From Deltaproteobacteria bacterium (lineage in GTDB: Bacteria; Desulfobacterota; Desulfobacteria; Desulfobacterales; Desulfatirhabdiaceae): a stretch of DNA of 64,000 nucleotides. Under the pieces are notes generated by a model. The model saw nothing but the letters and a program-made list of their open reading frames with translations. It was not told where the DNA came from and did not search any database. The stretch is from the NCBI GenBank assembly GCA_016219185.1, contig JACRBZ010000078.1:4810-68809 (forward strand), given 5' to 3'. The translations under genes were made by a program, and so were the position numbers. Below, piece by piece: positions 8,266-25,489 of this stretch (position 1 is the stretch's first letter; every line of letters starts with the position of its first letter).

Positions 8266-8925
8266 ATGGGAATTCAGGAAAGAAAAGAAAGAGATAAAGA
8301 GAGGCGGCGCCAGCGGATTCTCGTGGCTGCCAATCGGTTGTTCTCGAAAAAAGGGTTCAGCAAGTCAACGATGGAAGACATTGCCAGTGAAGCTGAATTG
8401 AGTACGGGAACCTTATACCTGTATTTCAAAAATAAAGAAGAGCTGCATGCATCGCTTTCTTTGAGGGTTTTGCAGTACCTTCATATTCGGGTCGAGCATG
8501 TCAACAAGGACAGCGATCTGACTCCCGAACGAAAAGTAGAGAAATTGATTGAGGCCATGTATGATGTCTATGATTTTGATCCGCTGAACATCATCAATTT
8601 GTTTCACCTTCAGTCCAGCGAAACGTTGAGAAATCTATCTCCCCGTCTCAAGATCCTGATCAAGGATTTATCCCGTAAATCCATCGGGGCAATTTCCGAT
8701 ATTTTTCAGGAGGGAATCGAAAAAGGCATTTATATTGAAAATCACCCGGTTGCTTTTTCGGATATCTTCTGGTCACTGTTTTCTGGAGTTGTCCTCCGGG
8801 AAGCTAGTAAAAAAACCATAAATGAAGACAAGGATTACTTGAAAAAAAAACTTGCTCTTTCCTTTGAAATATTCTCTCGAGGACTGAAAAAAGACAAGCC
8901 AACTGTCCAGCGATGGGGATCTTGA
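8266..8925 (+). CDS. TetR/AcrR family transcriptional regulator
   Basis: N-terminal HTH segment [43 protein letters not shown]. Confidence 0.85.
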
Positions 8926-9094
8926 CTTATCATGTACCGGAACAAACAAGATTCACAGGTCTGTGTTTTGTGTATTGAGGTATAAAAAGATGGTATGACG
9001 ACTCGAATTGGTATTATTACCCCTGTTTTTTTGTTATCAGGCTTGAAAACCATTAATAAATATTAATCTAACGGGCAGTTAGGGAGAATGATGA

Positions 9095-9916
9095 ATGAAA
9101 AGCAATAAAATAGCCGTTATGTTTTCCGGAGGCACAGATTCAACATATGCCGCCTGGTTACAACTACCCAAATATGATCAGATATATCTTATTACTTTCA
9201 TAAGATATGGCTTGAGACGAGCAGAAAATCTTCAGGAAGCCGTCAACAGACTGATGCAGAAAGTGCCTTCGAATGCAGAAATTCATCATAAAACAATCGA
9301 TATTGAAAACATTTATCAGTCAATTACGCCGCACCAGGAGAAACAGCAGGCCCAGCAGGAGGTCCTTAACCAAAAAATCGGTCCTTTGTGGGAAGATCCT
9401 CACGGGATTCGCAATGGCCGCGAAAAATATATGGAAAACATGCAAAAACTGTTCATGGCCAATGAATGCCTGCAATGCAAGATCGCCATGGATATTGCAG
9501 CGATAAAATTCTGTAAGGAAAACAATATCACAAACATTTGCGATGGCAGTAATACTGAACAGTTAGATGACGGCTCGCAGCTTGAAGACGTCAAGGTCAT
9601 TGCACGAGATATATTTAACCGCTATGGAATTAATTTTTTTTCACCAGCCTTCAATATCTCTGCTGAGGAAAGATGCCAAACGCTTTATAATGCAGGGATT
9701 ACGGATCATCCGGACCATAAAAAAATGGAGAAGACACATCAGATTCCGTCAAGACAGATACAGTGCACAATCCCGTCATCAGTTCTATGGACGAGCTGTA
9801 TTTTCCCATGGATGGTATATGATGGACAATCATGCAACGACTATATTGAGATGTGCCGCTTGTATTTTAAGAACGAAATTGAAAAAGGATTGGAGATTAT
9901 AGATATTAAACCATAA
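9095..9916 (+). CDS. PP-loop (SGGxDS) ATP pyrophosphatase superfamily protein, subfamily unassigned
   Basis: IAVMFSGGTDSTYAA PP-loop, an internal CLQC pair, and a CDGSNTEQLDDGS segment. Confidence 0.6.
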   Translation: MKSNKIAVMFSGGTDSTYAAWLQLPKYDQIYLITFIRYGLRRAENLQEAVNRLMQKVPSNAEIHHKTIDIENIYQSITPHQEKQQAQQEVLNQKIGPLWEDPHGIRNGREKYMENMQKLFMANECLQCKIAMDIAAIKFCKENNITNICDGSNTEQLDDGSQLEDVKVIARDIFNRYGINFFSPAFNISAEERCQTLYNAGITDHPDHKKMEKTHQIPSRQIQCTIPSSVLWTSCIFPWMVYDGQSCNDYIEMCRLYFKNEIEKGLEIIDIKP

Positions 9917-10010
9917 AATTAACCGGATATCACCGAAATGGATATTTATATGAATATGATCTATTTTCATCCTTCGATGTGCCCGCACCGAGCATGGCAG
10001 TTAGTCTTAA

Positions 10011-10050
10011 AATCGGACATTATTTTAATAAAATGCCATTTTGTCCGATT
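10011..10050. repeat. 9-bp perfect inverted repeat downstream of the PP-loop gene
   Basis: AATCGGACA (10011-10019) and TGTCCGATT (10042-10050), with a 22-nt AT-rich loop. Confidence 0.5.
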
Positions 10051-10455
10051 GTTCTGATTCAATTAATATCCGTAGAATGATCTGCGGTAATTTGTATGAA
10101 TAATTCTTATTTAATTTCCGCTCAGAACATCATGAAATATATCTATAAATTTAATCTTATAGATATACCCTTTATCATTTGTTCCCCTTAATTTCAATCT
10201 TGGCACAATATTTGTAATCTTTAACCAGGTAATTACCATGCTTCGTTGTGTTCGCAATCACGAGCAGTTCGGGATAGCCGTGCAAAATTAGTCTCAGAAA
10301 CAAAAGTAGCCGAAAGAAAGTAACTTTTTTCTACGGAAACGGTTTGAGATGCGGGTAAGGTGCCGGAGAGACTCGATGGTCGGTAATATAGCCTTCAACA
10401 GAAAAGTTTTTTAGACAACCTTTCTAATATCTTTAAATGACGAAAGGAGGTTTTT

Positions 10456-11493
10456 ATGAAGATCAACAATGGTTTTAAATTTTGGTGGCTGTCATTCTTA
10501 CTGACTTATAGTCTCTGCTTTTCATTGAACGTTTACCAGACAGATGCCGCGTCGCAGAGTGACAAGCCCGAATTCGTGTTCAGGTTTGCTGGGAATATGC
10601 CGGTTGGCCACTACATCACTAAAACACAGGAACTTTATGCCCGTCTTGTAGAAGAGAGAACCGGAGGAAAAGTGAAACTGGAAATATATCCGGCGGGTCA
10701 ATTGTTCAGCGACAAAGATCTGCCCAGAGCTTTGCCTTCCGGAGCGGTGGACATGGCCCAGGTAACAGCCGGGGTATGGACGGGCCTGATTCCCCCCTTG
10801 TCTATTATCGAGCTGCCTTATTTCTTTAAAGATCATGACCATCTGTATCGGGCGATAGATTCTTTGCAGTTCAGGCAGCTACTAGAAGCGGAATTTGAAA
10901 AGAAAGGGGTGAAACTGCTTTTTTGGATGGACTGGGGAACTGCAACATTTATTGGGAGAAAGCCGTTAAGGACCCTTGAGGATTTTAAGGGCAAGAGGCT
11001 CCGAGGACACGGAGAGACTCAAACAGAACTTATGGAGGCATTGGGAGCGGCTCCTGTGTTCATGGGTGCTGGAGAGCTTTATCTTGCATTGCAAAGAGGG
11101 ACCATTGACGGGCTACTCACAACAACCTGCTCGGTTTGGGACAGGAAGCTCTACGAGGTGGCTCGCTATTATACACATATCCCAATCGGGGATGTAACTT
11201 CACTGCCCGCAGTATTGGTAAATTTAGAAAAATGGAAGGATTTGCCCGCCGATTATCAAGGAGTCATGAGCGTTGCTGCCAAAGAGGCCCAGGAATGGGG
11301 ATATAACCAGGCGCGCGAGTCTTCGGAAGGATGTTTGCGGGGGCTCAAGGAGAAAGGGATGGAAATCTACTATCTGCCCGACAAGGAAAGGCAGAGATGG
11401 TCCGATTCTTGCCGGCCCATCCTGTTTCGATACATCGAACGAACCGGGGCAACGGGCAAAGCCTTGGTGGAGGAAGCGGAAAAGGCCCGCTAG
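10456..11493 (+). CDS. TRAP transporter substrate-binding protein (DctP family)
   Basis: Signal peptide followed by a DctP-like body (FRFAGNMPVGHYITK, LRGHGETQTELMEALGAAPV). AGGAGG RBS. The permease gene is adjacent. Confidence 0.85.
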   Translation: MKINNGFKFWWLSFLLTYSLCFSLNVYQTDAASQSDKPEFVFRFAGNMPVGHYITKTQELYARLVEERTGGKVKLEIYPAGQLFSDKDLPRALPSGAVDMAQVTAGVWTGLIPPLSIIELPYFFKDHDHLYRAIDSLQFRQLLEAEFEKKGVKLLFWMDWGTATFIGRKPLRTLEDFKGKRLRGHGETQTELMEALGAAPVFMGAGELYLALQRGTIDGLLTTTCSVWDRKLYEVARYYTHIPIGDVTSLPAVLVNLEKWKDLPADYQGVMSVAAKEAQEWGYNQARESSEGCLRGLKEKGMEIYYLPDKERQRWSDSCRPILFRYIERTGATGKALVEEAEKAR

Positions 11494-11511
11494 ATTTTAG
11501 GGAAACTATAG

Positions 11512-13419
11512 ATGAATAATTTGGATAGATCCGAGTCGCTCTTCGATCGAGTGATTTTCGGGAGCGCCCTGGGGGGCGGGATCCTGATCCTGCTCACCGC
11601 GCTCTTTGTCACCTATGAAGTGATTTTGCGATACTTTTTCAACTCGCCAACGACATGGGTGTTGGAAGTCAGTATTTATACGATTTTGGCTTCTACTTTT
11701 CTCTCCTTCGCTTACATTCTCAAGAATAATGGACATATAAGGGTTGATTTCGTCACCAATCATCTTTCCGGAAGGACTGCGCTTATCCTGGAGATATTTA
11801 CTTCCCTGTTAAGTATCCTCTACTGTCTGGTTATGACTTGGGAGGGGGGGAAGATGGCTTTTATATCCTACCAGAGCGGGGAGGTTTCTCCGACGGTTTT
11901 ACGGATTCCCTTGTTCATTCCCCTGTTCTTCGTTCCCTTGGGGGGGATTCTTCTTACCATTCAATTTATCCGGCTTGTAAAGAAGCTATTCAATAATTTA
12001 ACCTCTGCCGAATTTGCCGGAGAAGGAGAGAGGGTATTGAGGCAGCCTGCACAGGGGCCCCTCTTTTCCCAGATGCTGGTCACAGGCATCTTCGCTGTAT
12101 TGCTCGTCGTTAGTTTGATACTCCTTAAGGTATCTATGAATCTTGGACTTTTGACCCTCTTTTTTGTCCTTTTGCTGAGTGGCCTTCCGGTGGCCGTCGC
12201 CCTGGGCCTTTTTGGGGTTTTCGGGTTTTATTTCCTTTTTGGCGGCGCTTCCATGCTGGTGCAAATCCCGGTTGTTGCCTATTCCACTATGGACAATTTC
12301 GTCATTGTCGCCCTGCCCCTCTTCATCCTGACGGCCTCAGTTCTTCGAATCGGCGGGGTGGCTCCCAAGCTTTTTAAGTTTGCCTATGTCCTGGTGCGCC
12401 ATCTGCCTGGAGGGATGGGAATCGCCGCGGTGATCTTTTGCGGGTTATTTGCGGCCATGACCGGATCCAGCGTGGCGGTGGCAGCGGCCGCGAGCATGAT
12501 TGCCTTGCCGGAGTTGCTTTCCCGGGGATACGATCGCAAGCTGGCCATTGGTTTGCTGGCTGCAGGAGGAACACTGGGCATTCTCTTTCCGCCCAGTTTG
12601 GCCCTGATCCTTTATGGGGTCATGACCAACGAATCGGTTGGCTCTTTATTCCTGGCCAGCCTGATCCCCGGATTGCTTTTGTCCGTGATGTTCTGCCTCT
12701 ATGTAGCCGTGGTCGCCGGCTGGGATAATAATATCCAGCGCGAACCCAGAGCGAGTTGTCAAGAGATCCTGGGGGGGGCCAGGGGAGCTGCCGGCGGGTT
12801 GTTTACCATACTCATCATCATCGGAGGCATCTACTCGGGAATTTTTACTCCGACCGAGGCAGGGGGTGTGGCGGGTATTTACGGTCTCATCCTCTGCTGC
12901 TTCATCTCCCGCACCGTTTCCTGGGAAGGTCTGAAGAAAATCCTCCTGGATGCCACCATGCTCTCATCGATGATCCTTTTGATCATTATCGGAGCCAACA
13001 TCACCGGCCAGATGATTCTTATGGCTCAGATCACTCAGAACATTCTGGCCTTTGTCAAGGCTCTGGATGTTCCGCCCTGGGTAGTCATCCTGAGCATCAA
13101 CATCTTCTTGATCATAATGGGCATGCCCCTGGAAGCCGTTTCCATCATGGTCATAACCCTGCCCTTACTCTACCCCCTGGTTACTGAACTCGGGTTCAGC
13201 GGGTTATGGTTTGCGGTCGTCATGGTGATCAATATGGAGCTAGCCCTGATCTCTCCGCCTGAAGGTATAAATCTCTTTATCATACAGACCGTCGCAAAAT
13301 CCACGAGCAGCGAAGTCTCCCGGGGCGTGTTTCCCTTCCTGATCATCATGCTCCTTTTCCTGGTCTTGGTCTCGTTTGTGCCCGGCCTGACGAACTGGTT
13401 GCCGGCTTTGATGAAGTGA
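11512..13419 (+). CDS. TRAP transporter fused small/large permease (DctQ-DctM)
   Basis: 635 aa and polytopic. The N-terminal ~160 aa are DctQ-like, followed by a linker and a DctM-like domain (GLPVAVALGL, AAMTGSSVAVAAA). Confidence 0.85.
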   Translation: MNNLDRSESLFDRVIFGSALGGGILILLTALFVTYEVILRYFFNSPTTWVLEVSIYTILASTFLSFAYILKNNGHIRVDFVTNHLSGRTALILEIFTSLLSILYCLVMTWEGGKMAFISYQSGEVSPTVLRIPLFIPLFFVPLGGILLTIQFIRLVKKLFNNLTSAEFAGEGERVLRQPAQGPLFSQMLVTGIFAVLLVVSLILLKVSMNLGLLTLFFVLLLSGLPVAVALGLFGVFGFYFLFGGASMLVQIPVVAYSTMDNFVIVALPLFILTASVLRIGGVAPKLFKFAYVLVRHLPGGMGIAAVIFCGLFAAMTGSSVAVAAAASMIALPELLSRGYDRKLAIGLLAAGGTLGILFPPSLALILYGVMTNESVGSLFLASLIPGLLLSVMFCLYVAVVAGWDNNIQREPRASCQEILGGARGAAGGLFTILIIIGGIYSGIFTPTEAGGVAGIYGLILCCFISRTVSWEGLKKILLDATMLSSMILLIIIGANITGQMILMAQITQNILAFVKALDVPPWVVILSINIFLIIMGMPLEAVSIMVITLPLLYPLVTELGFSGLWFAVVMVINMELALISPPEGINLFIIQTVAKSTSSEVSRGVFPFLIIMLLFLVLVSFVPGLTNWLPALMK

Positions 13420-13551: not shown

Positions 13552-15099
13552 ATGAAATGGAATATCGGTAAAATTACATCAAAACGGGCGACCGCGACAC
13601 CCGACAAAACGGCATTTGTTTTTGAAGATATAAATATAACCTATGGGTATCTGAATGAGGAAACCAATCGTGTCGCCAATTATTTTCTTTCCAAGGGACT
13701 AAAAAAAGGCGATCGTATTTCAGTGCTTCTGGCCAATTGCCCCGAGTTTATGGCCATCTATCTGGCCGCTGCTAAAATCGGCCTTATTTTTGTGCCATTG
13801 AACGTTCGCATGGTATCCGGGGAGATCAAATATCAGCTCAATGACTGCGGTTCCCGTTTGCTTGTTTTTCATGATGCGTTTGCCGGTAATGTTGAGCCGC
13901 TCCGTTCTTCGGTACAAGTGGAAGAGGGTAAATATCTCTGGTTGAAAATCGGCGTCCCCGGTTTTCCGGACTGTCCGGAGTGGTCTGTTGATTATCATCA
14001 GGTAATTGATGAAAATTCAACAGACGAACCGACGGTGAATGAGTCCATCGATATGGATGATCCACTGGCTATCATTTACACATCAGGCGTTACAGGCAAC
14101 CCAAAAGGAGCTGTTCTTTCCCACGGCCAGACATATTTTAAGAATTTTCAGATGATAATGTATACGGACATGTCTGCAGACGATATTTTCTTGTCACAAC
14201 TGCCACTGTTTCATTCCGGTGGTCTGTTTATCATCGCCACGCCGGTTTTATGTCGAGGTGCGTCATTTATCATGAGACTCAAGTTTGAGCCGGAACAGTT
14301 TGCCAAAGATATCGAAAAATACAAACCCACGGTGATTTTTGCCCTGACCACCATGTGGCGCCTGATCCTGCAGTCAAAGGCGCTCGATAATATCGATGTC
14401 AGAAGTGTTAAATATATTTTGGGTGGAGGCGAACGGACACCTATCAGCCTGCTTAAGGAATTGGCCGAAAAAGGATTATACATGCAGCAGGGTTTTGGCC
14501 AAACAGAAAACTCAGCCATGATGATTCTGCCAAAAAAAGACATCATCAGAAAAGAAGGGTCCATCGGGTTACCGGGTTTTTTTACGGAAATCTGGATACA
14601 GGATATAGACGGAAACAGGACCCCGCCCGGTGAAATCGGAGAAATTGTGGCCACCGGGCCTACCGTGATGAGTGGTTATTGGAATTTACCCGATAAAACA
14701 AAAGAAACGATAGTCGATGGCGTCCTGCACACCGGCGATCTTGGCTACATGGATGGAGACGGTTATTTTTACATCGTCGACAGGGCCAAAGATATGTATC
14801 GTAGCGGTGGTGAGAATGTGTACCCGGCACAGATCGAAAAAATACTGATCGATCACCCGAAAATTGAAAATGTATCCATCATCGGGGTCCCAGATGACAA
14901 ATGGGGTGAAGTAGGGAAAGCCTTTATTGTATGTACTAAAGGTGAGAGCATAACCAAAGAAGAAGTTCATGAGTATCTCAGTGGAAAGATCGCCAAATAC
15001 AAGTTTCCGGCTCATATTGAAATGATCGATGACCTTCCAATGACTGCAACCGGAAAAATTAAAAAAGCAGAGTTGAAAAAGACAAACCGACTTGAATAG
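13552..15099 (+). CDS. AMP-dependent acyl-CoA synthetase/ligase
   Basis: AMP-binding motif IIYTSGVTGNPKGAVLSH, plus GYWN, TGDLGYMDGDGYFYIVDRAKD and a terminal GKIKK. Confidence 0.85.
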   Translation: MKWNIGKITSKRATATPDKTAFVFEDINITYGYLNEETNRVANYFLSKGLKKGDRISVLLANCPEFMAIYLAAAKIGLIFVPLNVRMVSGEIKYQLNDCGSRLLVFHDAFAGNVEPLRSSVQVEEGKYLWLKIGVPGFPDCPEWSVDYHQVIDENSTDEPTVNESIDMDDPLAIIYTSGVTGNPKGAVLSHGQTYFKNFQMIMYTDMSADDIFLSQLPLFHSGGLFIIATPVLCRGASFIMRLKFEPEQFAKDIEKYKPTVIFALTTMWRLILQSKALDNIDVRSVKYILGGGERTPISLLKELAEKGLYMQQGFGQTENSAMMILPKKDIIRKEGSIGLPGFFTEIWIQDIDGNRTPPGEIGEIVATGPTVMSGYWNLPDKTKETIVDGVLHTGDLGYMDGDGYFYIVDRAKDMYRSGGENVYPAQIEKILIDHPKIENVSIIGVPDDKWGEVGKAFIVCTKGESITKEEVHEYLSGKIAKYKFPAHIEMIDDLPMTATGKIKKAELKKTNRLE

Positions 15100-18695: not shown

Positions 18696-19889
18696 ATGTC
18701 AGAAAAATATGTCATTGTCAGCGCCAAAAGATCCCCTTTTGGCAAATACCTCGGTTCACTTTCAGAAATGGAGCCTATTGATGTGGCTGTTCATGTTGCA
18801 AACGCCACAATTGAGGCTGCAGGAAATAATATTAAAAAGGAAATCGATCAGATTTTTGTGGGAAACTGCATGCCGGGTTCCTTTGAGATCGGTTCGGTGA
18901 CGGGCCGGCAGATTTGTCTAAAACTTGGTCTTGATGTATTTACAACTACGATAGATACGGCCTGCTGCTCGCCCCTTACTGCGCTTCGTATGGCTCTCTG
19001 GGGCCTTCGTCTGGGCGAAATTGAGTCTGCGCTTGTAATCGGTATCGAGGCCATGAGCAGGGTGCCCCATCAGTCGCGTCAAATTAGGAATGGTGTCAGA
19101 ATAGGTGAACTGAAGATGCCCGACCCGATATTTCCCATCATGTATCCTGGCTACCATTCAGTGGCTGTTGATGCTTCCGATGGAGCTGCAAAATATAATA
19201 TTTCTAAAAGAATGCTGGATAACTTTGCAATGGGCTCCCATTTGAAATGGGCAGAAGCAATGAAAGCCGGAAAATTTGAGGATGAAATCGTTCCCATACC
19301 TGTTAAAAAAGGAAGAGAAAAATATCTTTTTACAACGGATGAAATGCCGCGTCCCGGTGGAAGTGTCGGGGCTCTCGAAATGCTTCCGCCGGTATTTGGG
19401 GCTAAGACCACTACGGCCGGGAATGCTCCCGGGTTAAATGACGGAGCGTCCGCCATGGTGGTTATGACCGAAAAAAAAGCAAAGGCACTTGGCCTTACTA
19501 TTCTTGGTAATATCGTTGATCAGGTTGGGCGAACTGACATGCCTTACGGAATATCATGGATTCCCGCATTCGCCATTAACAAATTGTTGGAAAGAACAAA
19601 AATGGGCATCGATGATATAAGTCTGATCGAAATCAATGAGGCCTTTGCCGCAATGCCCTTGGTCAGCACCAAAGTACTGGCTGAAAATAATGAAAAAAAG
19701 TGGCATGAATTGATAGAGAAAACCAATGTGAATGGTGGCGCAATCGCTATCGGACATCCGGTAGGGGCTTCCGGCCTTAGAATCACCATGGCGATGATGT
19801 ACGAACTTCGGCGAAGAGGCGGCGGTTTCGCCGTGGCCGCCATATGCGGAGGTTTAACTCAGGGCGAAGCGATCATGGTTCAAGTGTGA
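18696..19889 (+). CDS. Thiolase (acetyl-CoA C-acyltransferase family)
   Basis: Active-site Cys region IDTACCSPLTAL, plus NVNGGAIAIGHPVGASGLRI and AAICGGLTQGEA near the C-terminus. Confidence 0.9.
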   Translation: MSEKYVIVSAKRSPFGKYLGSLSEMEPIDVAVHVANATIEAAGNNIKKEIDQIFVGNCMPGSFEIGSVTGRQICLKLGLDVFTTTIDTACCSPLTALRMALWGLRLGEIESALVIGIEAMSRVPHQSRQIRNGVRIGELKMPDPIFPIMYPGYHSVAVDASDGAAKYNISKRMLDNFAMGSHLKWAEAMKAGKFEDEIVPIPVKKGREKYLFTTDEMPRPGGSVGALEMLPPVFGAKTTTAGNAPGLNDGASAMVVMTEKKAKALGLTILGNIVDQVGRTDMPYGISWIPAFAINKLLERTKMGIDDISLIEINEAFAAMPLVSTKVLAENNEKKWHELIEKTNVNGGAIAIGHPVGASGLRITMAMMYELRRRGGGFAVAAICGGLTQGEAIMVQV

Positions 19890-19937: not shown

Positions 19938-22031
19938 ATGTCCGAAGTTATATACCGGCTTGATCCCAAAAAGAATATAGCAGCATTTCTAATAGATACT
20001 GCAGGACCAGTCAACACCATTGGTGATCAGTTCATCAAAGACTTTGCGGTTGCCACTGAAAGGGCAAACCGTGATAATGTCCGAGGCGTTATTTTAGCGT
20101 CTCTTAAAAAAAAGAGTTTTTTAGATGGCGCCAACCTCATGGAAATTCTGAAAGATGCGTCATCTCTGAACTTGAAATATACCGTATTGAAGCTTCAGGA
20201 AGTGCTTGCATCCCTTGCCAGGAGCCCATTCCCTGTTGTTGCGGTTCTTACCGGCCAGACCGCCTTGGGAGGTGGTTTTGAGACGCTTTTGTGGACCTGT
20301 GATCATATCTTTGCCTCTCCGGGCACAAAAATGGGATTGCCGGAAGTCAACATCGGCCTTTTTCCCGCAGCCGGCGGCCCTGAAACCTTAAGAAGAGTAA
20401 TCGGACTTGAAAAAGCCATCGAGGTTGTCATGCGTGGGCAGGTACTTCCGGCCGAAGCATACGCAGATTCTGGTTTAGTTACAATTACCACTGGAAAAGA
20501 CATTCAAAACAAAGCTGAACAATGGATAGAATCCCACCTGGATATAGTCAATAGGAACTATGATCCCAAGTGGAAGGAACCCTTAAAACCGACTGGGAAG
20601 GTTCAGGAATCGTTAATTAAAAAAGCTCGGGACCGGTTTACCGTGTGTCTGGAAAAACCCTATTTTAAGGCGGCTATTGACGCCATTGAAGAAGGGCTTG
20701 ATTTACCTTTTGAAGAAGCTGCTAAAAACGAAGTAAAGCATTTTGCATGGCTTATTGAGCATCCCAATGTAAAAAATAAGATTGATTTGTTTTTTCTAAC
20801 GACAAGCATAGCTTCGAAATTGTCCGGTGTTAATGTTCAAAAGGCTATTCCCGTACCTAACTTGGCAATCATCGGCGCCGGTCTGATGGGGCAAGGTATT
20901 GCCCAGGTTTGTGCAGATAAAGGTATAAAAGTTCTTCTTATTGACATCGACATAAAAACCGCTGAAGCCGCAAAAGTGAATATCGGTAAAGGTCTGGACC
21001 CTCTGGTAAAAAAGGGGAGCTGGACACTGGAACGAAAAAACATGGTTATGGATAATATATGTTTATCCGATAATTATAGTGGTTTGAAAACGGTTCCATT
21101 AGTTATCGAGGCTGTTTTTGAAGATCTTGATTTGAAAAGGAAAATTCTCAAGCAGGTTCAGGAAATCAATCCGGATATCGTCTTTGCGTCCAATACGTCT
21201 ACCATACCCATGCAGGAAATCGCCGGCGAATCTCTTCGTCCGGAAATGGTTGTGGGAATGCATTACTTTTCCCCGGTTCCTTTAATGCCTCTTTTGGAGA
21301 TTATTCAAGGGCCGCAAACTTCTGAGAGTTCTCTCGCAACCGCTGTTGTCTCCGGCAGGCAACAGGGGAAAACCTGTGTCATTGTTGGAGATGGCCCCGG
21401 TTTTTATACCAGCAGAACATTCGGTGTCTATGTTATGACCGGTTTTTACCTCGCGGAAATGGGGGTTGACCCCTGGGAAATTGACAAGTTGGCCCTTGAG
21501 GCCGGTTTCCCCCAGGGCCCATTGAATGTTTACGGGACAGCAGGCGGGAATGTCATTTATCATGCTGGTTTGTATATGCAATCGAATAAGCCGGGGCTGA
21601 TAACAGTGCCGAAAACACTGATTAAAATGTATGAGGCCGGTTATGTGGGCGCCGGAAAGCCCTGTTTTTACGGCCCCGACATGAAACCGGACCAATCAGC
21701 AATAAAATTTGTTATTCGCAATGAATCCCTGCCGACTCCAACCCGTGAAGAAGTTAAAGAAATGCTTCTGCTCGCAATGGTCAATCAGGCGTTTCACTGC
21801 CTGGATGAGGGGGTTGTTAAAAACTATTACAGCATGGACATGGCTTCTGTATTAGGCATTGGTTTTCCTGACTGCTGGCATGGTCCCGGTCGCTACGTCA
21901 GCCAGAAAGGGGTTAAATTTACCCTTGGGCGTTTACAGGAATTCCATGACAAATACGGACTGGAATTCTTCAGGCCTGCCAGAGAGTTTAACAGGTTGAT
22001 TGCCTGCGGAGTTGATAGCGGTCTCGTATAG
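19938..22031 (+). CDS. Bifunctional enoyl-CoA hydratase / 3-hydroxyacyl-CoA dehydrogenase (FadB/FadJ-like)
   Basis: N-terminal crotonase fold (LTGQTALGGGFETLLWCD-like), central NAD fold LAIIGAGLMGQGIAQV, HFFSPVPLMPLLEI motif, 697 aa. Confidence 0.85.
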   Translation: MSEVIYRLDPKKNIAAFLIDTAGPVNTIGDQFIKDFAVATERANRDNVRGVILASLKKKSFLDGANLMEILKDASSLNLKYTVLKLQEVLASLARSPFPVVAVLTGQTALGGGFETLLWTCDHIFASPGTKMGLPEVNIGLFPAAGGPETLRRVIGLEKAIEVVMRGQVLPAEAYADSGLVTITTGKDIQNKAEQWIESHLDIVNRNYDPKWKEPLKPTGKVQESLIKKARDRFTVCLEKPYFKAAIDAIEEGLDLPFEEAAKNEVKHFAWLIEHPNVKNKIDLFFLTTSIASKLSGVNVQKAIPVPNLAIIGAGLMGQGIAQVCADKGIKVLLIDIDIKTAEAAKVNIGKGLDPLVKKGSWTLERKNMVMDNICLSDNYSGLKTVPLVIEAVFEDLDLKRKILKQVQEINPDIVFASNTSTIPMQEIAGESLRPEMVVGMHYFSPVPLMPLLEIIQGPQTSESSLATAVVSGRQQGKTCVIVGDGPGFYTSRTFGVYVMTGFYLAEMGVDPWEIDKLALEAGFPQGPLNVYGTAGGNVIYHAGLYMQSNKPGLITVPKTLIKMYEAGYVGAGKPCFYGPDMKPDQSAIKFVIRNESLPTPTREEVKEMLLLAMVNQAFHCLDEGVVKNYYSMDMASVLGIGFPDCWHGPGRYVSQKGVKFTLGRLQEFHDKYGLEFFRPAREFNRLIACGVDSGLV

Positions 22032-22156: not shown

Positions 22157-22169
22157 ACCTGAGTAGTTA
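22157..22169 (+). repeat. Copy 1 of the exact 13-mer ACCTGAGTAGTTA
   Basis: Lies 50 nt upstream of the B12 small-subunit ATG and is identical to 24489-24501. Confidence 0.8.
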
Positions 22170-22218
22170 CGAGGCTCATTGGAAATGAGAAAAGTAGTGG
22201 GATAGGGAGGTATTTAGA

Positions 22219-22617
22219 ATGAATACGGGAAAAAAAATTAGAGTGTTGATTGCAAAGCCGGGTCTGGATGGCCATGAGCGTGGCGCTAGAGTTATTGCCT
22301 ATGGTCTGAGGGATCTGGGGTTTGAGGTTATTTATACAGGTCTGAGACAGAAACCGGAAGAAATTGCGAGCGCTGCCGTTCAGGAAGATGTTAATGTGGT
22401 GGGCCTTTCTATTTTATCAGGGGCACATCTGTCTCTGACGCGCAAGGTCATCGAAAAACTAAGAGAACAAAACGCAACTGATATCCTGGTCATTGTCGGG
22501 GGAGTTATCCCTGATCAGGATGTTCCTGAATTAAAAAAAATGGGTGTCAGCGGAGTGTTTACTTCAGGCTCTTCCATAAAAGAGATAGGGGCATTTATCA
22601 ATTCCAGTTTGCCGTAA
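22219..22617 (+). CDS. Acyl-CoA mutase small subunit (cobalamin-binding domain)
   Basis: DxHxxG motif (LDGHERGA), LSILSGAH and VIVGGVIP, typical of the B12-binding Rossmann domain. 132 aa. GGGAGG RBS. Confidence 0.85.
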   Translation: MNTGKKIRVLIAKPGLDGHERGARVIAYGLRDLGFEVIYTGLRQKPEEIASAAVQEDVNVVGLSILSGAHLSLTRKVIEKLREQNATDILVIVGGVIPDQDVPELKKMGVSGVFTSGSSIKEIGAFINSSLP

Positions 22618-22650
22618 AGATTATTTTAGCCAGGCTTTTAGGTGATAAAT

Positions 22651-23598
22651 ATGGTAAAAAGTCGAATAGTAGAGATTACCGGGACCAGATATCCATTTAT
22701 TTTAGGTCCCATGCGACTGATCACGCTTGGTGAAATGGCGGCAGCCGTATCAAACAGCGGCGGATTCGGCCAGATTGCCGCCTCCGGCCTCTCATCTGAC
22801 CGGTTACTCCTGGAAATAAAAAAAGCCAGGGATCTGACCGATCAACCATTCGGAATCAATATTCTCATCTATCGTCCAAACGCCTTCGAAGCCCTCGAAA
22901 TAGCAATTGACGCAGGGATTAAAACCATTACAACATCTGCGGGAAATCCGGCGAAGTTAATTGGGCGTATCAAGGATGCAGGTTTAAAAGTACTGCATAA
23001 AGTTTCCTCCGTAGAAATGGCGCTGAAGTCTCAATCCTGTGGCGTTGATGGTGTTATTGCCACTGGATTTGAGGCTGCTGGTCATGTAGGCCGTCATGGA
23101 ACGACGACCATGTGCCTGGTGCCCCAGTTGGCGGACGCCTTAAAGGTGCCGGTGGTAGCGGCAGGAGGGATTGCAGACGCCAGAGGGCTTGTTGCCGCAT
23201 TTGCGTTGGGCGCTGAAGGAGTTGAACTGGGAACGCGGTTTATTGCCACCCATGAATGCCCGACCCCTGATTTTTACAAGCAGCTTATCGTGCGTGCTGA
23301 TAGTGATGCCACAATCCTTCTTGGAAAAGATGCCATGCCTATACGAGTGTTAAAAAACCTTGCAGTAGAGATGATTCAGAATCCGGACAAGACAATTGAG
23401 GATAAGCACCTTAACAGTAAAAATGCAGAAGCTGTATATATACACTTCGGAGGCGATGCGGATACCGCGATTATGCCGTCCGGGCAAATCGCCGGCCTGA
23501 TAAAACAGATTGAAAGTATTGGAAAAGTTTTCCCGGAACTAATGAAGGGCGCTATTTTATTAGCGCAACAACTGGAATCGACATTTGGGGGTGAATGA
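22651..23598 (+). CDS. FMN-dependent NPD-family oxidoreductase (nitronate monooxygenase / FabK-like enoyl reductase family)
   Basis: YPFILGPM, GFGQIAA, ATGFEAGHVG and VVAAGGIADARG motifs. Start moved to ATG 22651, after AGGTGA. Confidence 0.7.
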   Translation: MVKSRIVEITGTRYPFILGPMRLITLGEMAAAVSNSGGFGQIAASGLSSDRLLLEIKKARDLTDQPFGINILIYRPNAFEALEIAIDAGIKTITTSAGNPAKLIGRIKDAGLKVLHKVSSVEMALKSQSCGVDGVIATGFEAAGHVGRHGTTTMCLVPQLADALKVPVVAAGGIADARGLVAAFALGAEGVELGTRFIATHECPTPDFYKQLIVRADSDATILLGKDAMPIRVLKNLAVEMIQNPDKTIEDKHLNSKNAEAVYIHFGGDADTAIMPSGQIAGLIKQIESIGKVFPELMKGAILLAQQLESTFGGE

Positions 23599-24389
23599 TG
23601 CAGTGGGAGCATGTACTTTTGGACAAGAAAGATATGATCGCCTGGGTCACTCTGAATCGGCCGGAGAAATTGAACGCTTTCGGCGGCCGGATGCGCCAGG
23701 AACTCGTTGAAGTAATTGATGATGTTTGCGCTGATCCGGAAGTCAGGGTTATAGTCATCACCGGCTCCGGGAAGGCCTTTTGCGTCGGGGGTGATGTCAC
23801 GGAGTTCGTTTCCGGCCAAACCAAGGCCCTCACGGAAACTTCTCCCAGTGAACGTCCAGCCATGGCAAAAATTGTTTTGGCCTTGAACCAGGTTGAAAAA
23901 CCGGTGATCGCTGCGGTAAATGGTGTGGCGGCAGGTGGCGGCGTCAACCTGGCCCTGGCTTGTGATATTCGAATCGCCAGTGAAAAAGCCCGGTTTGGAC
24001 AGGTGTTCACACGGCGCGGCGTTCACCCGGATTGGGGCGGTATTTATTTTTTACCCCGACTTGTGGGTTATGCCAAGGCCTGTGAACTGATTTTTTCAGG
24101 TGACGTCATCGACGCCCAAGAAGCCTATAAACTCGGCATGGTGAACACTCTCGTACCCCACGAAAAACTTATGGAAGCCACCACTGAAATGGCCAGAAGA
24201 ATCGCAGACAATGCTCCCATACCGATTGCATATGCCAAAAGAGGCTTGCAGAATTTTTATAAGTGGGATTTGGCCCAGGCCCTGGATTATGAATCCTATG
24301 TGCTGAGCGTTACCATGAAAAGCGAAGACTTCAAAGAAGGATTCACGGCGTTTCTGGAGAAAAGAGAACCTGCTTTCAAGGGCAGGTAA
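23595..24389 (+). CDS. Enoyl-CoA hydratase/isomerase family protein
   Basis: IAWVTLNRPEKLNAF, ITGSGKAFCVGGD and AAVNGVAAGGGVNLALACD motifs. ATGA start/stop overlap with the upstream gene. Confidence 0.85.
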   Translation: MMQWEHVLLDKKDMIAWVTLNRPEKLNAFGGRMRQELVEVIDDVCADPEVRVIVITGSGKAFCVGGDVTEFVSGQTKALTETSPSERPAMAKIVLALNQVEKPVIAAVNGVAAGGGVNLALACDIRIASEKARFGQVFTRRGVHPDWGGIYFLPRLVGYAKACELIFSGDVIDAQEAYKLGMVNTLVPHEKLMEATTEMARRIADNAPIPIAYAKRGLQNFYKWDLAQALDYESYVLSVTMKSEDFKEGFTAFLEKREPAFKGR

Positions 24390-24488
24390 GGTTATCTTGT
24401 CGGTTAGGTATACTGAAGGTTAAAGGCGTTGGGTTATGGGTTCTTTCTTTTTACCAGGAACCTGAGTGTTTATCCCTTCGGTTTAAAC

Positions 24489-24501
24489 ACCTGAGTAGTT
24501 A
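24489..24501 (+). repeat. Copy 2 of the exact 13-mer ACCTGAGTAGTTA
   Basis: Lies 26 nt upstream of the meaB-like ATG. A degenerate copy, ACCTGAGTGTTTA, is at 24460-24472. Confidence 0.8.
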
Positions 24502-24526
24502 AAATCACAGCCGGAGATAAAATACA

Positions 24527-25489
24527 ATGCTGGAAGATTGGGAAAGTCTGATAGCCGAAATGAGAAAAGGATCGGTTCGGGCCCTGGCACGACTGATTAC
24601 CCGGATTGAGAATCGGGAATCGGGATGGATGGATGCAATGCAAATGATTTATTCTATGACCGGCAAGGCGCGCGTTATCGGAATCACAGGCGCGCCTGGC
24701 TCAGGGAAAAGCACCCTTACGGACCGATTGGCACGCGAGCTGTTTAACAGGGGCTTTAAAATCGGGATCATTGCCGTGGATCCGTCAAGCCCGTTTTCCG
24801 GAGGCGCTCTGTTGGGGGACCGCTTGCGTATGAAAGAAGTAAGCACCCTTCACGATGTATTCATCCGTTCCATGGCCACCCGAGGAGCTTTAGGCGGGTT
24901 GAACCTGTCAGCCCGGGATGTAGTTAAAATTCTGGACGCCTTCGGCAAGGACGTTATTCTTATTGAAACCGTCGGAGTTGGACAGGACGAGATTGAGGTA
25001 GTGAAGACGGCCGACATGGTGCTGGTGGTCTGCGTTCCTGGGATGGGTGACGGTATTCAGGCGATTAAGGCCGGGATAATGGAAATTGCCGACATTTTTA
25101 TCGTTAATAAGGCTGATCTCGACGGGACAGATCAAGTTGTCGCAGATATACGCGCCATGCTGGACCTCTCGGCAGATGAAATTTCATCGCAAACCCCGGT
25201 ACTTAAAACGATCGCCTCAACCGGCGAAGGTGTTGTAGATCTGGTCACCATGATGCTTGTAAATTTTGAAGCGGGGCGGATAAGAGTCTCCTGGAGTGAG
25301 GAACGTGCGAAAGAAGAAATCTTGTCACTTTTAGAGAAAGAGATCTCTCGTAATCTACAAGGCAGATGGGCTCGAAACGGCAATCTGACTGAAGCAGTAA
25401 AACAGGTGATAGCCCATGAACGAGATCCCTATTCTATTGTACAGGAGATGATGATGCCACTATTGCAGTTTAATTACTCAGACAGATAA
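24527..25489 (+). CDS. meaB: MeaB/ArgK-type G-protein chaperone of B12 mutases
   Basis: P-loop GITGAPGSGKSTL, SGGALLGDR, ETVGVGQDE and NKADL motifs. 320 aa. Confidence 0.85.
   Translation: MLEDWESLIAEMRKGSVRALARLITRIENRESGWMDAMQMIYSMTGKARVIGITGAPGSGKSTLTDRLARELFNRGFKIGIIAVDPSSPFSGGALLGDRLRMKEVSTLHDVFIRSMATRGALGGLNLSARDVVKILDAFGKDVILIETVGVGQDEIEVVKTADMVLVVCVPGMGDGIQAIKAGIMEIADIFIVNKADLDGTDQVVADIRAMLDLSADEISSQTPVLKTIASTGEGVVDLVTMMLVNFEAGRIRVSWSEERAKEEILSLLEKEISRNLQGRWARNGNLTEAVKQVIAHERDPYSIVQEMMMPLLQFNYSDR

Follow-up and report, generated by a model that had tools for sequence, protein, structure and literature searches.

Gene content and order

The first-pass annotation of the window (the whole 64-kb stretch of DNA analyzed) had described 13 co-directional genes at positions 8266 to 25489, and Pfam and NCBIfam searches recovered all of them, in the same orientation and order and at matching coordinates (Table 1). 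The three mutase components were indeed dispersed among other genes, spanning ~10 kb. The reported lack of an acyl-CoA dehydrogenase (ACAD) and of ETF was also confirmed, in that neither was detectable in the 64 kb and two tblastn queries taken from related loci, one ACAD and one ETF-alpha, yielded E values above 0.1. However, the missing ACAD is specific to the window locus and is not a general trait, as the related loci L040 and L041 carry an ACAD gene adjoining the FadB gene.

Table 1. Features of the window discussed in the text
Position	Strand	Feature	Basis or remark
1..673	-	carboxyltransferase, N-terminal part	PF01039; gene runs off window; 524 aa in L039
698..1321	-	DUF4125 protein	PF13526; orthologues 48-49%, directly upstream of MutS, Smithella L016/L020
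1303..2259	-	NAD-dependent epimerase/dehydratase-type SDR	PF01370; orthologues 51-53%, Smithella L016/L020
2278..3255	-	DUF4037 protein	PF13228; orthologues 56-57%, Smithella L016/L020
3215..3811	-	TPR-repeat protein	TPR families
3777..4631	-	crotonase-fold protein, no hydratase glutamates	PF00378
5772..6917	+	family III CoA-transferase-fold protein, alpha-methylacyl-CoA racemase type	PF02515
8266..8925	+	TetR-family regulator	PF00440
9095..9916	+	PP-loop ATPase (SGGTDS motif)	weak QueC/ThiI matches, N-terminus
10138..10216	+	candidate control region	11-nt inverted repeat, then sigma-54-like -24/-12 element
10456..11493	+	TRAP solute-binding protein DctP	PF03480, 231 bits
11512..13419	+	fused TRAP membrane subunits DctQ-DctM	PF04290 + PF06808
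13552..15099	+	AMP-forming acyl-CoA ligase (AssK-like)	PF00501/PF13193
15312..17057	+	B12-dependent acyl-CoA mutase, large (substrate-binding) subunit	PF01642, 464 bits
17237..18586	+	MmgE/PrpD-family protein	best solved relative iminodisuccinate (IDS) epimerase, 191 bits
18696..19889	+	thiolase	PF00108/PF02803; catalytic Cys, His, Cys motifs present
19938..22031	+	FadJ/FadB-like enoyl-CoA hydratase/3-hydroxyacyl-CoA dehydrogenase	profile matches
22219..22617	+	mutase small subunit, B12-binding	PF02310; DGHERG = DxHxxG
22642..23598	+	FMN-dependent FabK/NMO-type oxidoreductase	PF03060
23595..24389	+	crotonase-fold protein, no hydratase glutamates	PF00378; 4-nt overlap with FabK-like gene end
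24527..25489	+	MeaB G-protein chaperone of mutase	TIGR00750, 295 bits, cutoff 241
25611..25910	+	conserved small membrane protein, ~99 aa	no Pfam match

The cluster is shared with alkylsuccinate synthase-linked loci

The full 17-kb order recurred in L037 and L038; the proteins there were 91 to 96% identical, TetR only 74%. Six Desulfobacterales-type MAGs had the same order minus the TRAP genes, at 72 to 91% identity, and no TetR homologue was detected in these six shorter loci. The cluster is a conserved operon, and its order is no chance arrangement.

A parallel with the processing of (1-methylalkyl)succinates had been drawn from gene content and is strongly supported by gene context. In 12 alkylsuccinate synthase-linked loci, which include Desulfothermus naphthae and Smithella, orthologues of both mutase subunits, MeaB, the PrpD-like protein, the ligase and the FabK-like/crotonase pair lie beside MasD/AssA-type genes, as do orthologues of the PP-loop ATPase, the 99-aa membrane protein and the upstream minus-strand genes. 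In D. naphthae (L035), a glycyl-radical enzyme that scored 1,488 bits against MasD (PDB 9o8u) and a BssC-like small subunit lie ~3.5 kb from a set of ten genes whose products are 59 to 74% identical to those of the window (carboxyltransferase, MutS, ligase, FabK-like protein, crotonase, MutL, MeaB, 99-aa protein, PrpD-like protein and PP-loop ATPase). The arrangement MutS-MutL-MeaB-PrpD-AssC/AssA was found in 11 loci beyond D. naphthae, three of them in Smithella genomes. In the literature, the ass clusters of Desulfoglaeba already list a mutase, an "LAO/AO ATPase" (by our reading, of the MeaB type of the window cluster) and MmgE/PrpD among their ancillary genes.

Across the ass/mas accessory genes of D. 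naphthae, Smithella spp. and Desulfoglaeba alkanexedens, the window orthologues were 48 to 74% identical. Unlike those clusters, the window has no glycyl-radical synthase, small subunits or activase; in their stead it has a TetR regulator and a TRAP transporter, along with a dedicated thiolase and a FadB. Its gene order is reshuffled, which is why its three mutase genes are dispersed. The interpretation that we favor, and consider fairly probable, is that the genes of the window serve to catabolize a 2-alkyl-substituted succinate after its import, with the enzyme set that in alkane-degrading anaerobes adjoins the alkylsuccinate synthase genes.

Orthologues of the AMP-ligase in ass-linked loci are 69% (D. 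naphthae) and 54 to 60% (L015, L017 and L030) identical, and we predict that it is an alkylsuccinate-CoA ligase. The PP-loop ATPase is 64% identical to a D. naphthae protein whose gene lies between those of PrpD and AssC, and homologues of the 99-aa protein (57 to 65%) adjoin the PrpD-like gene in D. naphthae, L002 to L004, L012, L023, L025, L032, L040 and L041.

A divergent operon belongs to the same system

A carboxyltransferase had been noted earlier at positions 1 to 673; its family assignment stands (Table 1), but the gene lies on the minus strand, where it closes a second operon that runs divergently from the first. The protein shares 68% identity with the carboxyltransferase encoded at the start of the D. 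naphthae ass-linked cluster, and in L094 its orthologue occurs together with OAD_beta and a biotin carrier; it is a candidate alpha subunit for a decarboxylase or transcarboxylase of (alkyl)malonyl-CoA. Homologues of the TPR protein (38 to 40%) adjoin MutS in the Smithella/Syntrophaceae loci L016, L018, L020 and L030. The minus-strand genes (positions 1 to 4631) are part of the same system as the plus-strand cluster.

The minus-strand crotonase probably starts ~57 nt downstream of the tabulated start, because the gene called in L039 encodes 265 aa. Its orthologues (54 to 62%) occur in 11 mutase/PrpD loci, ass-linked ones included, and it scored 170 bits against the NCBIfam methylmalonyl-CoA decarboxylase model, below the cutoff of 257. 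Relative to the hydratase 5ZAI, it has GAGLN for GGGLE and MPP for LPE, and the plus-strand crotonase has GGGVN and QVF. Both are without the hydratase glutamates, and neither stand-alone crotonase can act as an ordinary hydratase; the minus-strand protein is a candidate (alkyl)malonyl-CoA decarboxylase. The N-terminal domain of the FadB-like protein, which is 54% identical to the FadB encoded beside the L041 cluster, retains both glutamates (GGGFE and LPE).

The FabK-like gene was paired with the downstream crotonase gene throughout (L035, L040 to L042 and L094). Its product had FabK enoyl reductases as its best solved relatives (214 bits) and scored 257 bits against the FabK equivalog model, for which the cutoff is 453. 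The racemase-like gene at 5772 had been correctly recognized: the protein adopts the fold of family III CoA-transferases and, among solved structures, is closest to the alpha-methylacyl-CoA racemases MCR/AMACR (196 bits), with GHDVNY and ADVAGGG located where MCR has its catalytic His and Asp.

The mutase belongs to a clade distinct from methylmalonyl-CoA mutase

If the mutase were a methylmalonyl-CoA mutase (MCM), the module would serve propionate/succinate metabolism, with succinate or a different C4-dicarboxylate taken up by the TRAP system. The flow could run from succinate to propionate, as in the E. coli succinate-to-propionate operon sbm-ygfD-ygfG-ygfH (scpA-argK-scpB-scpC), or from propionyl-CoA to regenerated fumarate in alkane degraders, and published accounts give ass-adjacent mutases either role. 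The large subunit keeps the carboxylate-binding Tyr/Arg and the Tyr-His pair of MCM (equivalents of Tyr89, Arg207 and Tyr243-His244), and the small subunit matched TIGR00640 above the cutoff (171 bits). Furthermore, the window and the E. coli operon both combine a B12 mutase, a MeaB-type GTPase, a crotonase-fold decarboxylase and a CoA-activating enzyme, and minimal "group B" loci (mutase, MeaB, glutamate-less crotonase and CoA-transferase) have just the content of that operon.

However, the large subunit scored 398 bits against the MCM equivalog model, below the cutoff of 876, is ~40% identical to solved MCMs, has TAHIGC in place of HCQTSGW (the H328/Q330 segment) and carries a clade-specific insertion, whereas it is 66 to 73% identical to the ass-linked mutases. 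These sequence features place it in a distinct, ass-associated clade apart from MCM, and one contig, L006, holds a canonical-type mutase besides one of this clade. The window also differs from the E. coli operon in its epimerase, beta-oxidation genes, FabK-like enzyme and transporter, and its substrate is probably a substituted succinate. Conversion of succinate to propionate needs no dedicated thiolase and FadB, and the constant partner of the mutase is an epimerase-type MmgE/PrpD protein, whereas succinate has no stereocenter. We consider the MCM interpretation improbable, although the sequence leaves room for some succinyl-CoA/methylmalonyl-CoA activity of the enzyme.

Another parallel comes from the ethylmalonyl-CoA pathway, in which the reaction of ethylmalonyl-CoA mutase resembles the predicted interconversion of 2-alkylsuccinyl-CoA and alkyl-CH2-malonyl-CoA, with the free carboxylate bound by Tyr/Arg. 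The window protein differs in being split into large and small subunits, in apparently belonging to a separate clade and in its proposed catabolic direction.

The MmgE/PrpD-family protein is a predicted epimerase

The PrpD-fold enzyme had been regarded as an oddity of this cluster; it is instead the most constant partner of its mutase clade. Methylcitrate dehydratase was rejected as an assignment, with true PrpD models scoring 29 to 42 bits against cutoffs of 458 to 575. The seven IDS epimerase residues H85, D88, H99, Y145, H150, K198 and K266 were kept in all 43 homologues compared, and the window protein has the second base, Tyr145, where cis-aconitate decarboxylase has Ile. The (S)-(R)-methylsuccinate isomerase encoded in the itaconate-methylsuccinate cluster of Pseudomonas/Cupriavidus belongs to the same family and has the same catalytic and binding residues, including the second-base tyrosine; this MmgE/PrpD protein, described in 2025, racemizes methylsuccinate, a 2-alkylsuccinate, in its free form and not as the CoA ester, and a CoA-activating enzyme that is stereoselective acts after it (Gonner et al. 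2025, PMC12290011). The window protein is only ~33 to 35% identical to proteobacterial plasmid-borne MmgE/PrpD proteins. From the conserved residues and this precedent we predict that it is a two-base epimerase of a free 2-alkylsuccinate. In the aerobic methylsuccinate pathway an ACAD converts methylsuccinyl-CoA to mesaconyl-CoA, whereas in the window the B12 mutase follows and there is no ACAD.

All MmgE/PrpD substrates known so far have a C4-dicarboxylate core in common and vary in their C2/C3 substituents. Another 2-substituted succinate or a tricarboxylate might be degraded here, such as tricarballylate (carboxymethylsuccinate), a benzylsuccinate-type acid or an N-substituted succinate, the likeness to alkane pathways reflecting shared chemistry only. 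The several mutase and PrpD paralogues in L005/L006 suggest a family of substrates, and TRAP binding proteins unrelated between lineages suggest different ligands. We nevertheless think this improbable, given the identity to the D. naphthae ass-linked cluster over ten genes, a level at which substrates are usually closely related, and a FadB and thiolase that fit an aliphatic acyl-CoA product. The benzylsuccinate beta-oxidation (bbs) operon is similar in that a fumarate addition product is processed as its CoA ester. In that route, a dehydrogenase, hydratase, SDR and thiolase act directly on the succinyl-CoA derivative and there is no mutase; the window is without BbsEF and BbsG equivalents.

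The transporter and the origin of the substrate

Upstream of the TRAP genes, a perfect 11-nt inverted repeat (arms 10138-10148 and 10157-10167) precedes a sigma-54-like element at 10201-10216, TGGCACAATATTTGTA. Such matches were not enriched across the window, and the stretch can be put forward only tentatively as a control region.

Matches of the window DctP to solved structures did not exceed 115 bits, so that none is close, and its nearest homologues (52 to 57%) lie in carboxyltransferase/CoA-transferase loci without a mutase. The window lineage, L042, L094 and L095 all have TRAP systems embedded with the module, and these are distant from one another, the DctPs being mutually 23 to 31% identical; unrelated TRAP transporters have been recruited to the module at least four times. 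In L095 the PrpD-like gene sits within the TRAP operon, which is wrapped around that gene alone.

These data bear on whether the window is instead the downstream arm of the organism's own fumarate addition pathway for alkanes, with the synthase encoded elsewhere and the TRAP system importing fumarate, succinate or something unrelated. Every non-transport gene is orthologous to ass-linked genes, DctP-family transporters are classically C4-dicarboxylate carriers, and in L040 and L041 radical-SAM genes resembling glycyl-radical activases come after the module. The next-closest relatives (the L002 group) have the same operon without a transporter, so the TRAP genes were added recently, and what they carry is not necessarily the substrate of the pathway. 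On the other hand, no glycyl-radical enzyme was found in the 64 kb of the window, nor within 10 kb in L037 and L038, and the DctP scored no better against solved C4-dicarboxylate DctPs (85 to 103 bits) than against sialic acid binders. The repeated insertion of TRAP genes is easier to understand if what is transported is also the substrate of the enzyme. We consider a resident alkane pathway unlikely.

A proposed pathway for imported alkylsuccinates

The sequence proposed earlier (import, CoA activation, B12-dependent skeleton rearrangement and chain shortening) is supported by comparative genomics and, under the favored interpretation of alkylsuccinate catabolism, would run as follows. The TRAP system (DctP and DctQM) would import the free dicarboxylate, and the MmgE/PrpD protein would interconvert its C-2 epimers by a His/Tyr two-base mechanism, making both stereoisomers usable, a step that we infer from the conserved catalytic residues and the characterized methylsuccinate isomerase. 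The AMP-ligase would form the CoA thioester, and the split mutase, loaded by MeaB, would shift the thioester carbonyl to give a substituted malonyl-CoA, in analogy to the interconversion of methylsuccinyl-CoA and ethylmalonyl-CoA; here the enzyme class is established and the substrate is predicted. The free carboxyl group may be lost through the candidate glutamate-less crotonase(s), the candidate biotin-type carboxyltransferase of the divergent operon or both, after which FadB and thiolase would shorten the acyl-CoA, with 2-methyl stereocenters handled by the racemase-like protein. The steps beyond "B12 acyl-CoA mutase" are proposed from homology and context. The conserved partners of these enzymes also include the FabK-like flavoenzyme, the PP-loop ATPase, the small membrane protein and the DUF4037, DUF4125, SDR and TPR proteins.

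The substrate could be methylsuccinate, another short alkylsuccinate or an alkane-derived (1-methylalkyl)succinate; the ligands of TRAP binding proteins are usually small hydrophilic acids, a poor fit to long-chain alkylsuccinates. The module itself was already known from genomes, and what is new is its uptake-linked variant, in which an uptake system replaces the synthase, such that the bacterium probably imports and consumes alkyl-substituted succinates instead of making them.

Gene content and conservation of the operon

The 13 genes reported in the first-pass annotation, all of them on the plus strand, were borne out by the ORF list and by Pfam and NCBIfam scans (see the table below). The same annotation had grouped a carboxyltransferase at the left edge of the window with these genes; the gene is real, but it is encoded on the minus strand and forms the end of a second operon (4631 down to 1; crotonase, TPR protein, DUF4037, SDR, DUF4125, and carboxyltransferase) rather than belonging to the plus-strand cluster. 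An acyl-CoA dehydrogenase (ACAD) and an ETF had been described as missing, and tblastn searches with one ACAD and one ETF-alpha sequence from related loci indeed gave no matches in the 64 kb.

Genes of the plus-strand cluster, with window coordinates
Gene product	Position	Strand	Evidence
TetR	8266-8925	+	ORF list, Pfam/NCBIfam scans
PP-loop ATPase, N-terminus weakly QueC/ThiI-like	9095-9916	+	ORF list, Pfam/NCBIfam scans
DctP	10456-11493	+	PF03480
Fused DctQ-DctM	11512-13419	+	PF04290 and PF06808
AMP-forming ligase	13552-15099	+	ORF list, Pfam/NCBIfam scans
Acyl-CoA mutase large subunit (MutL)	15312-17057	+	PF01642
MmgE/PrpD protein (PrpD-like)	17237-18586	+	PF03972, PF19305
Thiolase	18696-19889	+	ORF list, Pfam/NCBIfam scans
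FadJ/FadB-like bifunctional enzyme	19938-22031	+	ORF list, Pfam/NCBIfam scans
B12-binding small subunit (MutS)	22219-22617	+	TIGR00640
NMO/FabK-like flavoenzyme	22642-23598	+	ORF list, Pfam/NCBIfam scans
Crotonase	23595-24389	+	ORF list, Pfam/NCBIfam scans
MeaB	24527-25489	+	TIGR00750

The window proteins match, with full identity, those of a MAG labeled "Deltaproteobacteria bacterium" (MBI5592952-53). The full 17-kb gene order, including the TRAP genes, is kept in two metagenome contigs from the closest relatives (L037 and L038), where the proteins are 91 to 96% identical to those of the window, with the exception of TetR (74%). Six Desulfobacterales/Desulfosalsimonadaceae metagenome-assembled genomes (MAGs), at 72 to 91% identity, keep the PP-loop ATPase, ligase, MutL, PrpD-like, thiolase, FadB, MutS, FabK-like, crotonase, and MeaB genes and are missing the TRAP genes; L002, where the region farther upstream is available, has a PAS kinase and a sigma-54 regulator there instead. 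What is conserved as a unit is therefore the beta-oxidation-containing operon, and the transporter was inserted recently, in the spacer between the PP-loop and ligase genes.

TetR diverges in L037 and L038 even though the spacer upstream of DctP is ~95 to 98% identical there, so that TetR has either evolved faster or been exchanged. In both contigs, the crotonase and MeaB genes are separated by one for a CobA/CobO-type cob(I)alamin adenosyltransferase (L037, 19123-19662; L038, 16270-16809); the same place in the window (24390-24526) is just a 138-bp gap, the adenosyltransferase gene being missing. Downstream of MeaB, at 25611-25910 (plus strand), lies a gene for a conserved membrane protein of ~99 amino acids that has an FNAIPH..QGICG..HMTPF motif and no family match, and that accompanies the PrpD-like gene across many loci, including that of Desulfothermus naphthae. 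On the other side of the cluster, GC content is 0.53 in the segment 6001-8000, to which the DUF2520/Rossmann gene (7255-8160) belongs, compared with 0.41 to 0.45 in neighboring segments; a PanB gene stands upstream of the DUF2520 gene in L037 and is missing from the window.

Farther downstream, positions 30949-38992 carry futalosine-type menaquinone genes (two PF02621 genes, two CofH/MqnC-like radical-SAM genes, an amidohydrolase gene, and a nucleoside phosphorylase gene). A group II intron at 35905-37700 (plus strand) is flanked on either side by an MqnC/MqnE-like radical-SAM gene of the opposite strand; Rfam domains D1 to D4 were found at 35905-36140 (127 bits), and a reverse-transcriptase/maturase ORF comes after them, at 36351-37679. 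A 651-amino-acid ORF on the minus strand (35859-37814), with no family match, is probably spurious. A type I restriction-modification HsdM gene lies at 40080-42164.

Orthologues in alkylsuccinate synthase clusters

We scanned species-representative genomes with the PrpD-like protein and then mapped all of the window proteins onto the retrieved loci, whose shared core consists of MutS, MutL, MeaB, and PrpD. In 38 loci the PrpD-like protein reached 50% identity or more; 32 of these also had the mutase and 29 had MeaB. AssC- and AssA-like genes, for the small and the glycyl-radical subunits of alkylsuccinate synthase, directly follow the PrpD-like gene in 12 loci, including those of Smithella sp. 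SCADC, M82, and SDB. The accessory genes of these ass/mas clusters (mutase, MeaB, MmgE/PrpD, ligase, and carboxyltransferase) are 48 to 74% identical orthologues of window genes and are syntenic with AssC/AssA in 12 loci.

D. naphthae is a thermophilic, alkane-degrading sulfate reducer. Its locus has the order carboxyltransferase, MutS, ligase, FabK-like enzyme, crotonase, MutL, MeaB, 99-amino-acid protein, and PrpD, followed by a VWA protein, the PP-loop ATPase, a BssC-like protein, and a glycyl-radical enzyme that scored 1488 bits against the solved (1-methylalkyl)succinate synthase subunit MasD; its MutL and PP-loop ATPase are 73% and 64% identical to those of the window. In the Smithella loci, DUF4037, SDR, DUF4125, and TPR genes lie immediately 5' of MutS, and a crotonase of the window's minus-strand type lies 3' of AssA. 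Through D. naphthae and Smithella together, nearly every gene of both window operons thus has an ass-linked orthologue, the ones without being those for TetR, the TRAP system, the thiolase, and the DUF2520 protein. This orthology and synteny with MasD-containing clusters strongly supported the parallel to (1-methylalkyl)succinate processing drawn in the first-pass annotation.

Both ass clusters of Desulfoglaeba alkanexedens have been described as including the mutase subunits, an "LAO/AO ATPase" (by our reading, MeaB of the type found in the window cluster), and an MmgE/PrpD protein, listed as ancillary with no functions given, and the mutase on Smithella scaffold 201 has been ascribed in the literature to skeleton rearrangement. 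The association of the mutase and PrpD-like genes with ass clusters is thus already on record, without functional interpretation. New, as far as we could determine, are the synthase-less, TRAP-linked, beta-oxidation-containing arrangement, the residue-level prediction of an epimerase, and the non-hydratase nature of the crotonases.

Searches of both strands of the 64-kb window, tblastn among them, found no AssA/MasD glycyl-radical subunit, small subunits, or activase. The large ORFs downstream of the cluster encode AlaRS, UvrA, HsdM, sigma-54, and futalosine-pathway proteins. Downstream of the TRAP-less clusters of L002 (19.9 to 21.3 kb) and L003 (14.1 to 15.4 kb) there is a glycyl-radical enzyme, which we rejected as a member of the system because its nearest relative is B12-independent glycerol dehydratase (214 bits), not the X-succinate synthases, and because a GGDEF gene parts it from the cluster.

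The mutase keeps the residues for a dicarboxyl substrate

MutL matched PF01642 (464 bits) and passed the TIGR00641 cutoff (483 versus 304 bits), MutS passed that of TIGR00640 (171 versus 57 bits) and has the DxHxxG motif in the form LDGHERG, and the MeaB-type G-protein chaperone passed that of TIGR00750 (295 versus 241 bits). Against the methylmalonyl-CoA mutase (MCM) equivalog model NF006944, MutL scored 398 bits, below the cutoff of 876.

In MCM, a Tyr, an Arg, and a Tyr-His pair serve free-carboxylate binding and catalysis, His328/Gln330 belong to an active-site segment, and the Tyr and Arg are replaced in isobutyryl- and hydroxyisobutyryl-CoA mutases. We aligned MutL to human MCM and 2-hydroxyisobutyryl-CoA mutase and found that Tyr89 (GKYAGF), Arg207 (VGRGTYIYPP), and the Tyr243-His244 pair (GGYHMREAG) of MCM are all kept and are conserved across the clade, which points to a succinyl-type dicarboxyl-CoA as the substrate. 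In the alignment to human MCM, the His328/Gln330 segment HCQTSGW is changed to STAHIGC, with a 2-residue insertion. MutL is ~40% identical to MCMs and has a clade-specific insertion ahead of the Tyr, and it shares this insertion and the altered HCQTSGW segment with the ass-linked orthologues. Judged by these sequences, the window mutase is not an ordinary MCM. A role as such an enzyme in propionate or succinate metabolism would fit the kept Tyr, Arg, and Tyr-His residues; given the NF006944 score and the altered segment, we consider it very unlikely. One groundwater contig (L006) combines a canonical-type mutase (RQYAGFGT) with one of the window clade, which argues for differing substrates. 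On 2-alkylsuccinyl-CoA, established knowledge and inference lead us to expect a reaction homologous to the interconversion of methylsuccinyl-CoA and ethylmalonyl-CoA.

The groundwater Desulfobacterales/Deltaproteobacteria contigs L005 and L006 carry two or three mutase subunit pairs and two PrpD paralogues side by side, the latter 34 to 35% and 62 to 63% identical to the window PrpD-like protein. These multiple paralogues suggest a family of related substrates.

The MmgE/PrpD-type protein as a predicted epimerase

Both MmgE/PrpD domains are present in the PrpD-like protein (PF03972, 222 bits; PF19305, 99 bits), which scored far below the cutoffs of the true PrpD models (TIGR02330, 29 versus 458 bits; NF006943, 42 versus 575 bits) and had no PrpD structure among its solved-structure matches. 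The top solved relative was iminodisuccinate (IDS) epimerase (191 bits), followed by an uncharacterized Bacillus homologue and cis-aconitate decarboxylases.

The (S)-(R)-methylsuccinate isomerase of an itaconate cluster has been identified by experiment as an MmgE/PrpD protein that acts only on the free acid and precedes a stereoselective CoA-transferase in the route (Gonner et al. 2025, PMC12290011). The same study listed the shared residues H85, D88, H99, H150, K198, and K266 (IDS numbering) and an epimerase-specific second base, Tyr145 (PMC12290011). In an alignment of IDS epimerase with 43 PrpD-like sequences taken from the loci, all seven of these residues are invariant in the 43 homologues and present in the window protein, with Tyr145 contained in an HY motif in every one; the cis-aconitate decarboxylase 7BR9 aligns an Ile there. 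On the model scores and the Tyr145 position, we rejected a reading as methylcitrate dehydratase or cis-aconitate decarboxylase. With the IDS epimerase residues all kept and the methylsuccinate enzyme as a precedent, we predict that the PrpD-like protein is a C-2 epimerase of free 2-alkylsuccinate.

The epimerase postulated for alkane degradation was hitherto taken for an alpha-methylacyl-CoA racemase, an enzyme reported missing in all of the alkane-degrading Smithella genomes. In those genomes the PrpD-like gene lies directly upstream of assC/assA, so that the predicted epimerase would fit this known gap. We found no published precedent for the assignment in the literature covered, which was incomplete, and a search of a plasmid collection with the PrpD-like protein returned just uncharacterized homologues, ~33 to 35% identical.

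A racemase-like gene had also been annotated at 5772. Its product has a family III CoA-transferase fold, and alpha-methylacyl-CoA racemases (MCR/AMACR) are its best solved relatives, as the label implied, with formyl-CoA transferase close behind (196 versus 178 bits). It contains GHDVNY and ADVAGGG motifs at what we take to be the places of the racemase catalytic His126/Asp156 pair.

Recurrent linkage to TRAP transporters and candidate regulatory sites

The TRAP system is complete, with DctP and the DctQ and DctM membrane domains (PF03480, PF04290, and PF06808). Comparison of DctP with solved structures was uninformative (best score, 115 bits). Its nearest homologues, 52 to 57% identical (67% for DctQM) and found on peat or wetland contigs, sit between an MmdA-like carboxyltransferase and a succinate/glutarate-type CoA-transferase, without a mutase, which supports a dicarboxylate that is CoA activated as the DctP ligand and nothing more specific.

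TRAP systems recur in other versions of the module, and their binding proteins are only 23 to 31% identical to one another. The TRAP system lies between MutL and PrpD in L042, and the Desulfobacula MAG L094 has TRAP genes around PrpD plus an MFS transporter. In a Spirochaetota MAG from a tar biofilm (L095, 6269-13466), a TRAP operon that has three DctP paralogues encloses a PrpD-like gene (63% identical), with no mutase within 10 kb. Such repeated, independent coupling of TRAP systems to a free-acid enzyme is best explained if the imported molecule is the substrate of the PrpD-like enzyme. It weighs against the idea that the operon serves an alkane pathway of the organism itself, in which ass would be encoded at another place and the TRAP system would import fumarate; that idea would account for the orthology with synthase clusters and for a dicarboxylate ligand, and we regard it as unlikely. 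The L094 locus (1-21111) is the largest version of the module, with two TRAP systems, the MFS transporter, three crotonases, an OAD_beta subunit, and a biotin carrier.

The 540-bp spacer that precedes DctP contains, at 10138-10216, a perfect 11-nt inverted repeat (TATATCTATAA / TTATAGATATA, 8-nt spacer) 34 nt upstream of a sigma-54-like TGGCAC-N5-TTGT element; another sigma-54-like site (5658-5673) is found ~100 nt ahead of the racemase-like gene. We treat these as weak leads to operator and promoter sites: with 18 sigma-54 matches against 33 expected, the window shows no enrichment, and conservation in L037 and L038 is uninformative because the whole intergenic region is ~95 to 98% identical. 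No cobalamin riboswitch or other RNA element was found near the cluster at Rfam gathering thresholds, and the count of intrinsic terminators equaled chance expectation.

Crotonases without catalytic glutamates and the proposed decarboxylation step

In both stand-alone crotonases (3777-4631 on the minus strand and the plus-strand gene preceding MeaB), Asn and Pro or Phe replace the two catalytic glutamates seen in hydratase 5ZAI; the FadB N-terminal domain keeps both hydratase glutamates (GGGxE and PE motifs). Going by these substitutions, the two "hydratase" genes cannot encode hydratases. The minus-strand crotonase resembles methylmalonyl-CoA decarboxylase, below the model cutoff, and its type is a consistent partner in a set of minimal loci, group B, made up of GntR, MutL, a radical-SAM/PDZ protein, MutS, crotonase, PrpD, a CoA-transferase, and MeaB. 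It is our first candidate for the decarboxylation step. In L094, the OAD_beta subunit and biotin carrier accompany the carboxyltransferase, a gene set pointing to another possible route, through a sodium-pumping biotin decarboxylase.

The FabK-like enzyme scored 257 bits against TIGR03151, below the cutoff of 453, with FabK still its best solved relative (214 bits). Its gene always precedes the second glutamate-less crotonase gene (L035 [D. naphthae], L040 to L042, and L094), and the two overlap by 4 nt in the window. The pair may convert alkylmalonyl-CoA directly to 2-enoyl-CoA by oxidative decarboxylation; such a reaction would run crotonyl-CoA carboxylase/reductase chemistry backward on another protein scaffold. 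If so, the operon would need no ACAD. The missing ACAD is specific to the window locus; in L040 and L041, an ACAD gene lies beside FadB.

A proposed pathway and its substrate

Drawing on what we observed directly (gene families, conserved catalytic residues, orthology and synteny with MasD clusters, a window free of the synthase, and recurrent TRAP linkage), we propose that 2-alkylsuccinate would be taken up by the TRAP system, epimerized as the free acid by the PrpD-like protein, ligated to CoA, rearranged by the mutase to alkylmalonyl-CoA, and decarboxylated. FadB and the thiolase would then carry out beta-oxidation, with the racemase-like protein acting on 2-methyl-branched intermediates.

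Methylsuccinate or another short alkylsuccinate would fit the TRAP ligand and, weakly, the acetoacetyl-CoA-thiolase-like model scores of the thiolase. An alkane-derived substrate would fit the 59 to 74% identity to D. naphthae proteins. A non-alkyl 2-substituted succinate would fit the C4-dicarboxylate core common to known MmgE/PrpD substrates; set against the degree of identity to the ass-linked D. naphthae proteins, it seems to us very unlikely. Our fullest reading is that the PrpD-type clade is the alkane-pathway epimerase, acting on free (1-methylalkyl)succinate and not on the CoA ester, that the TRAP-linked, synthase-less modules mark an alkylsuccinate-scavenging guild, and that the FabK-like/crotonase pair may decarboxylate oxidatively; we offer it tentatively, as a possibility that is rather unlikely as a whole.

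Significance

Epimerization, skeleton rearrangement, and decarboxylation after fumarate addition have stood in pathway schemes for two decades, and we know of no characterized enzyme for any of them; none of the enzymes of the window module is characterized. The comparison defines a coherent, widely conserved gene module for these steps, provides a specific residue-level prediction of the missing epimerase, backed by the 2025 methylsuccinate experiment, and reveals recurrent variants in which an uptake system takes the place of the radical enzyme. These uptake variants offer an easy experimental entry, since their soluble proteins can be assayed without glycyl-radical chemistry, and a long-standing gap in anaerobic alkane biochemistry thereby becomes directly testable.

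Alkylsuccinates released by hydrocarbon degraders are used in the field as in situ biomarkers of anaerobic oil degradation. Should the substrates taken up be alkane derived, such organisms would consume the indicator metabolites, affecting how these indicators are read. If the substrate is instead methylsuccinate, the operon would be, to our knowledge, the first candidate for an ACAD-free route of its degradation, via a B12-dependent mutase.
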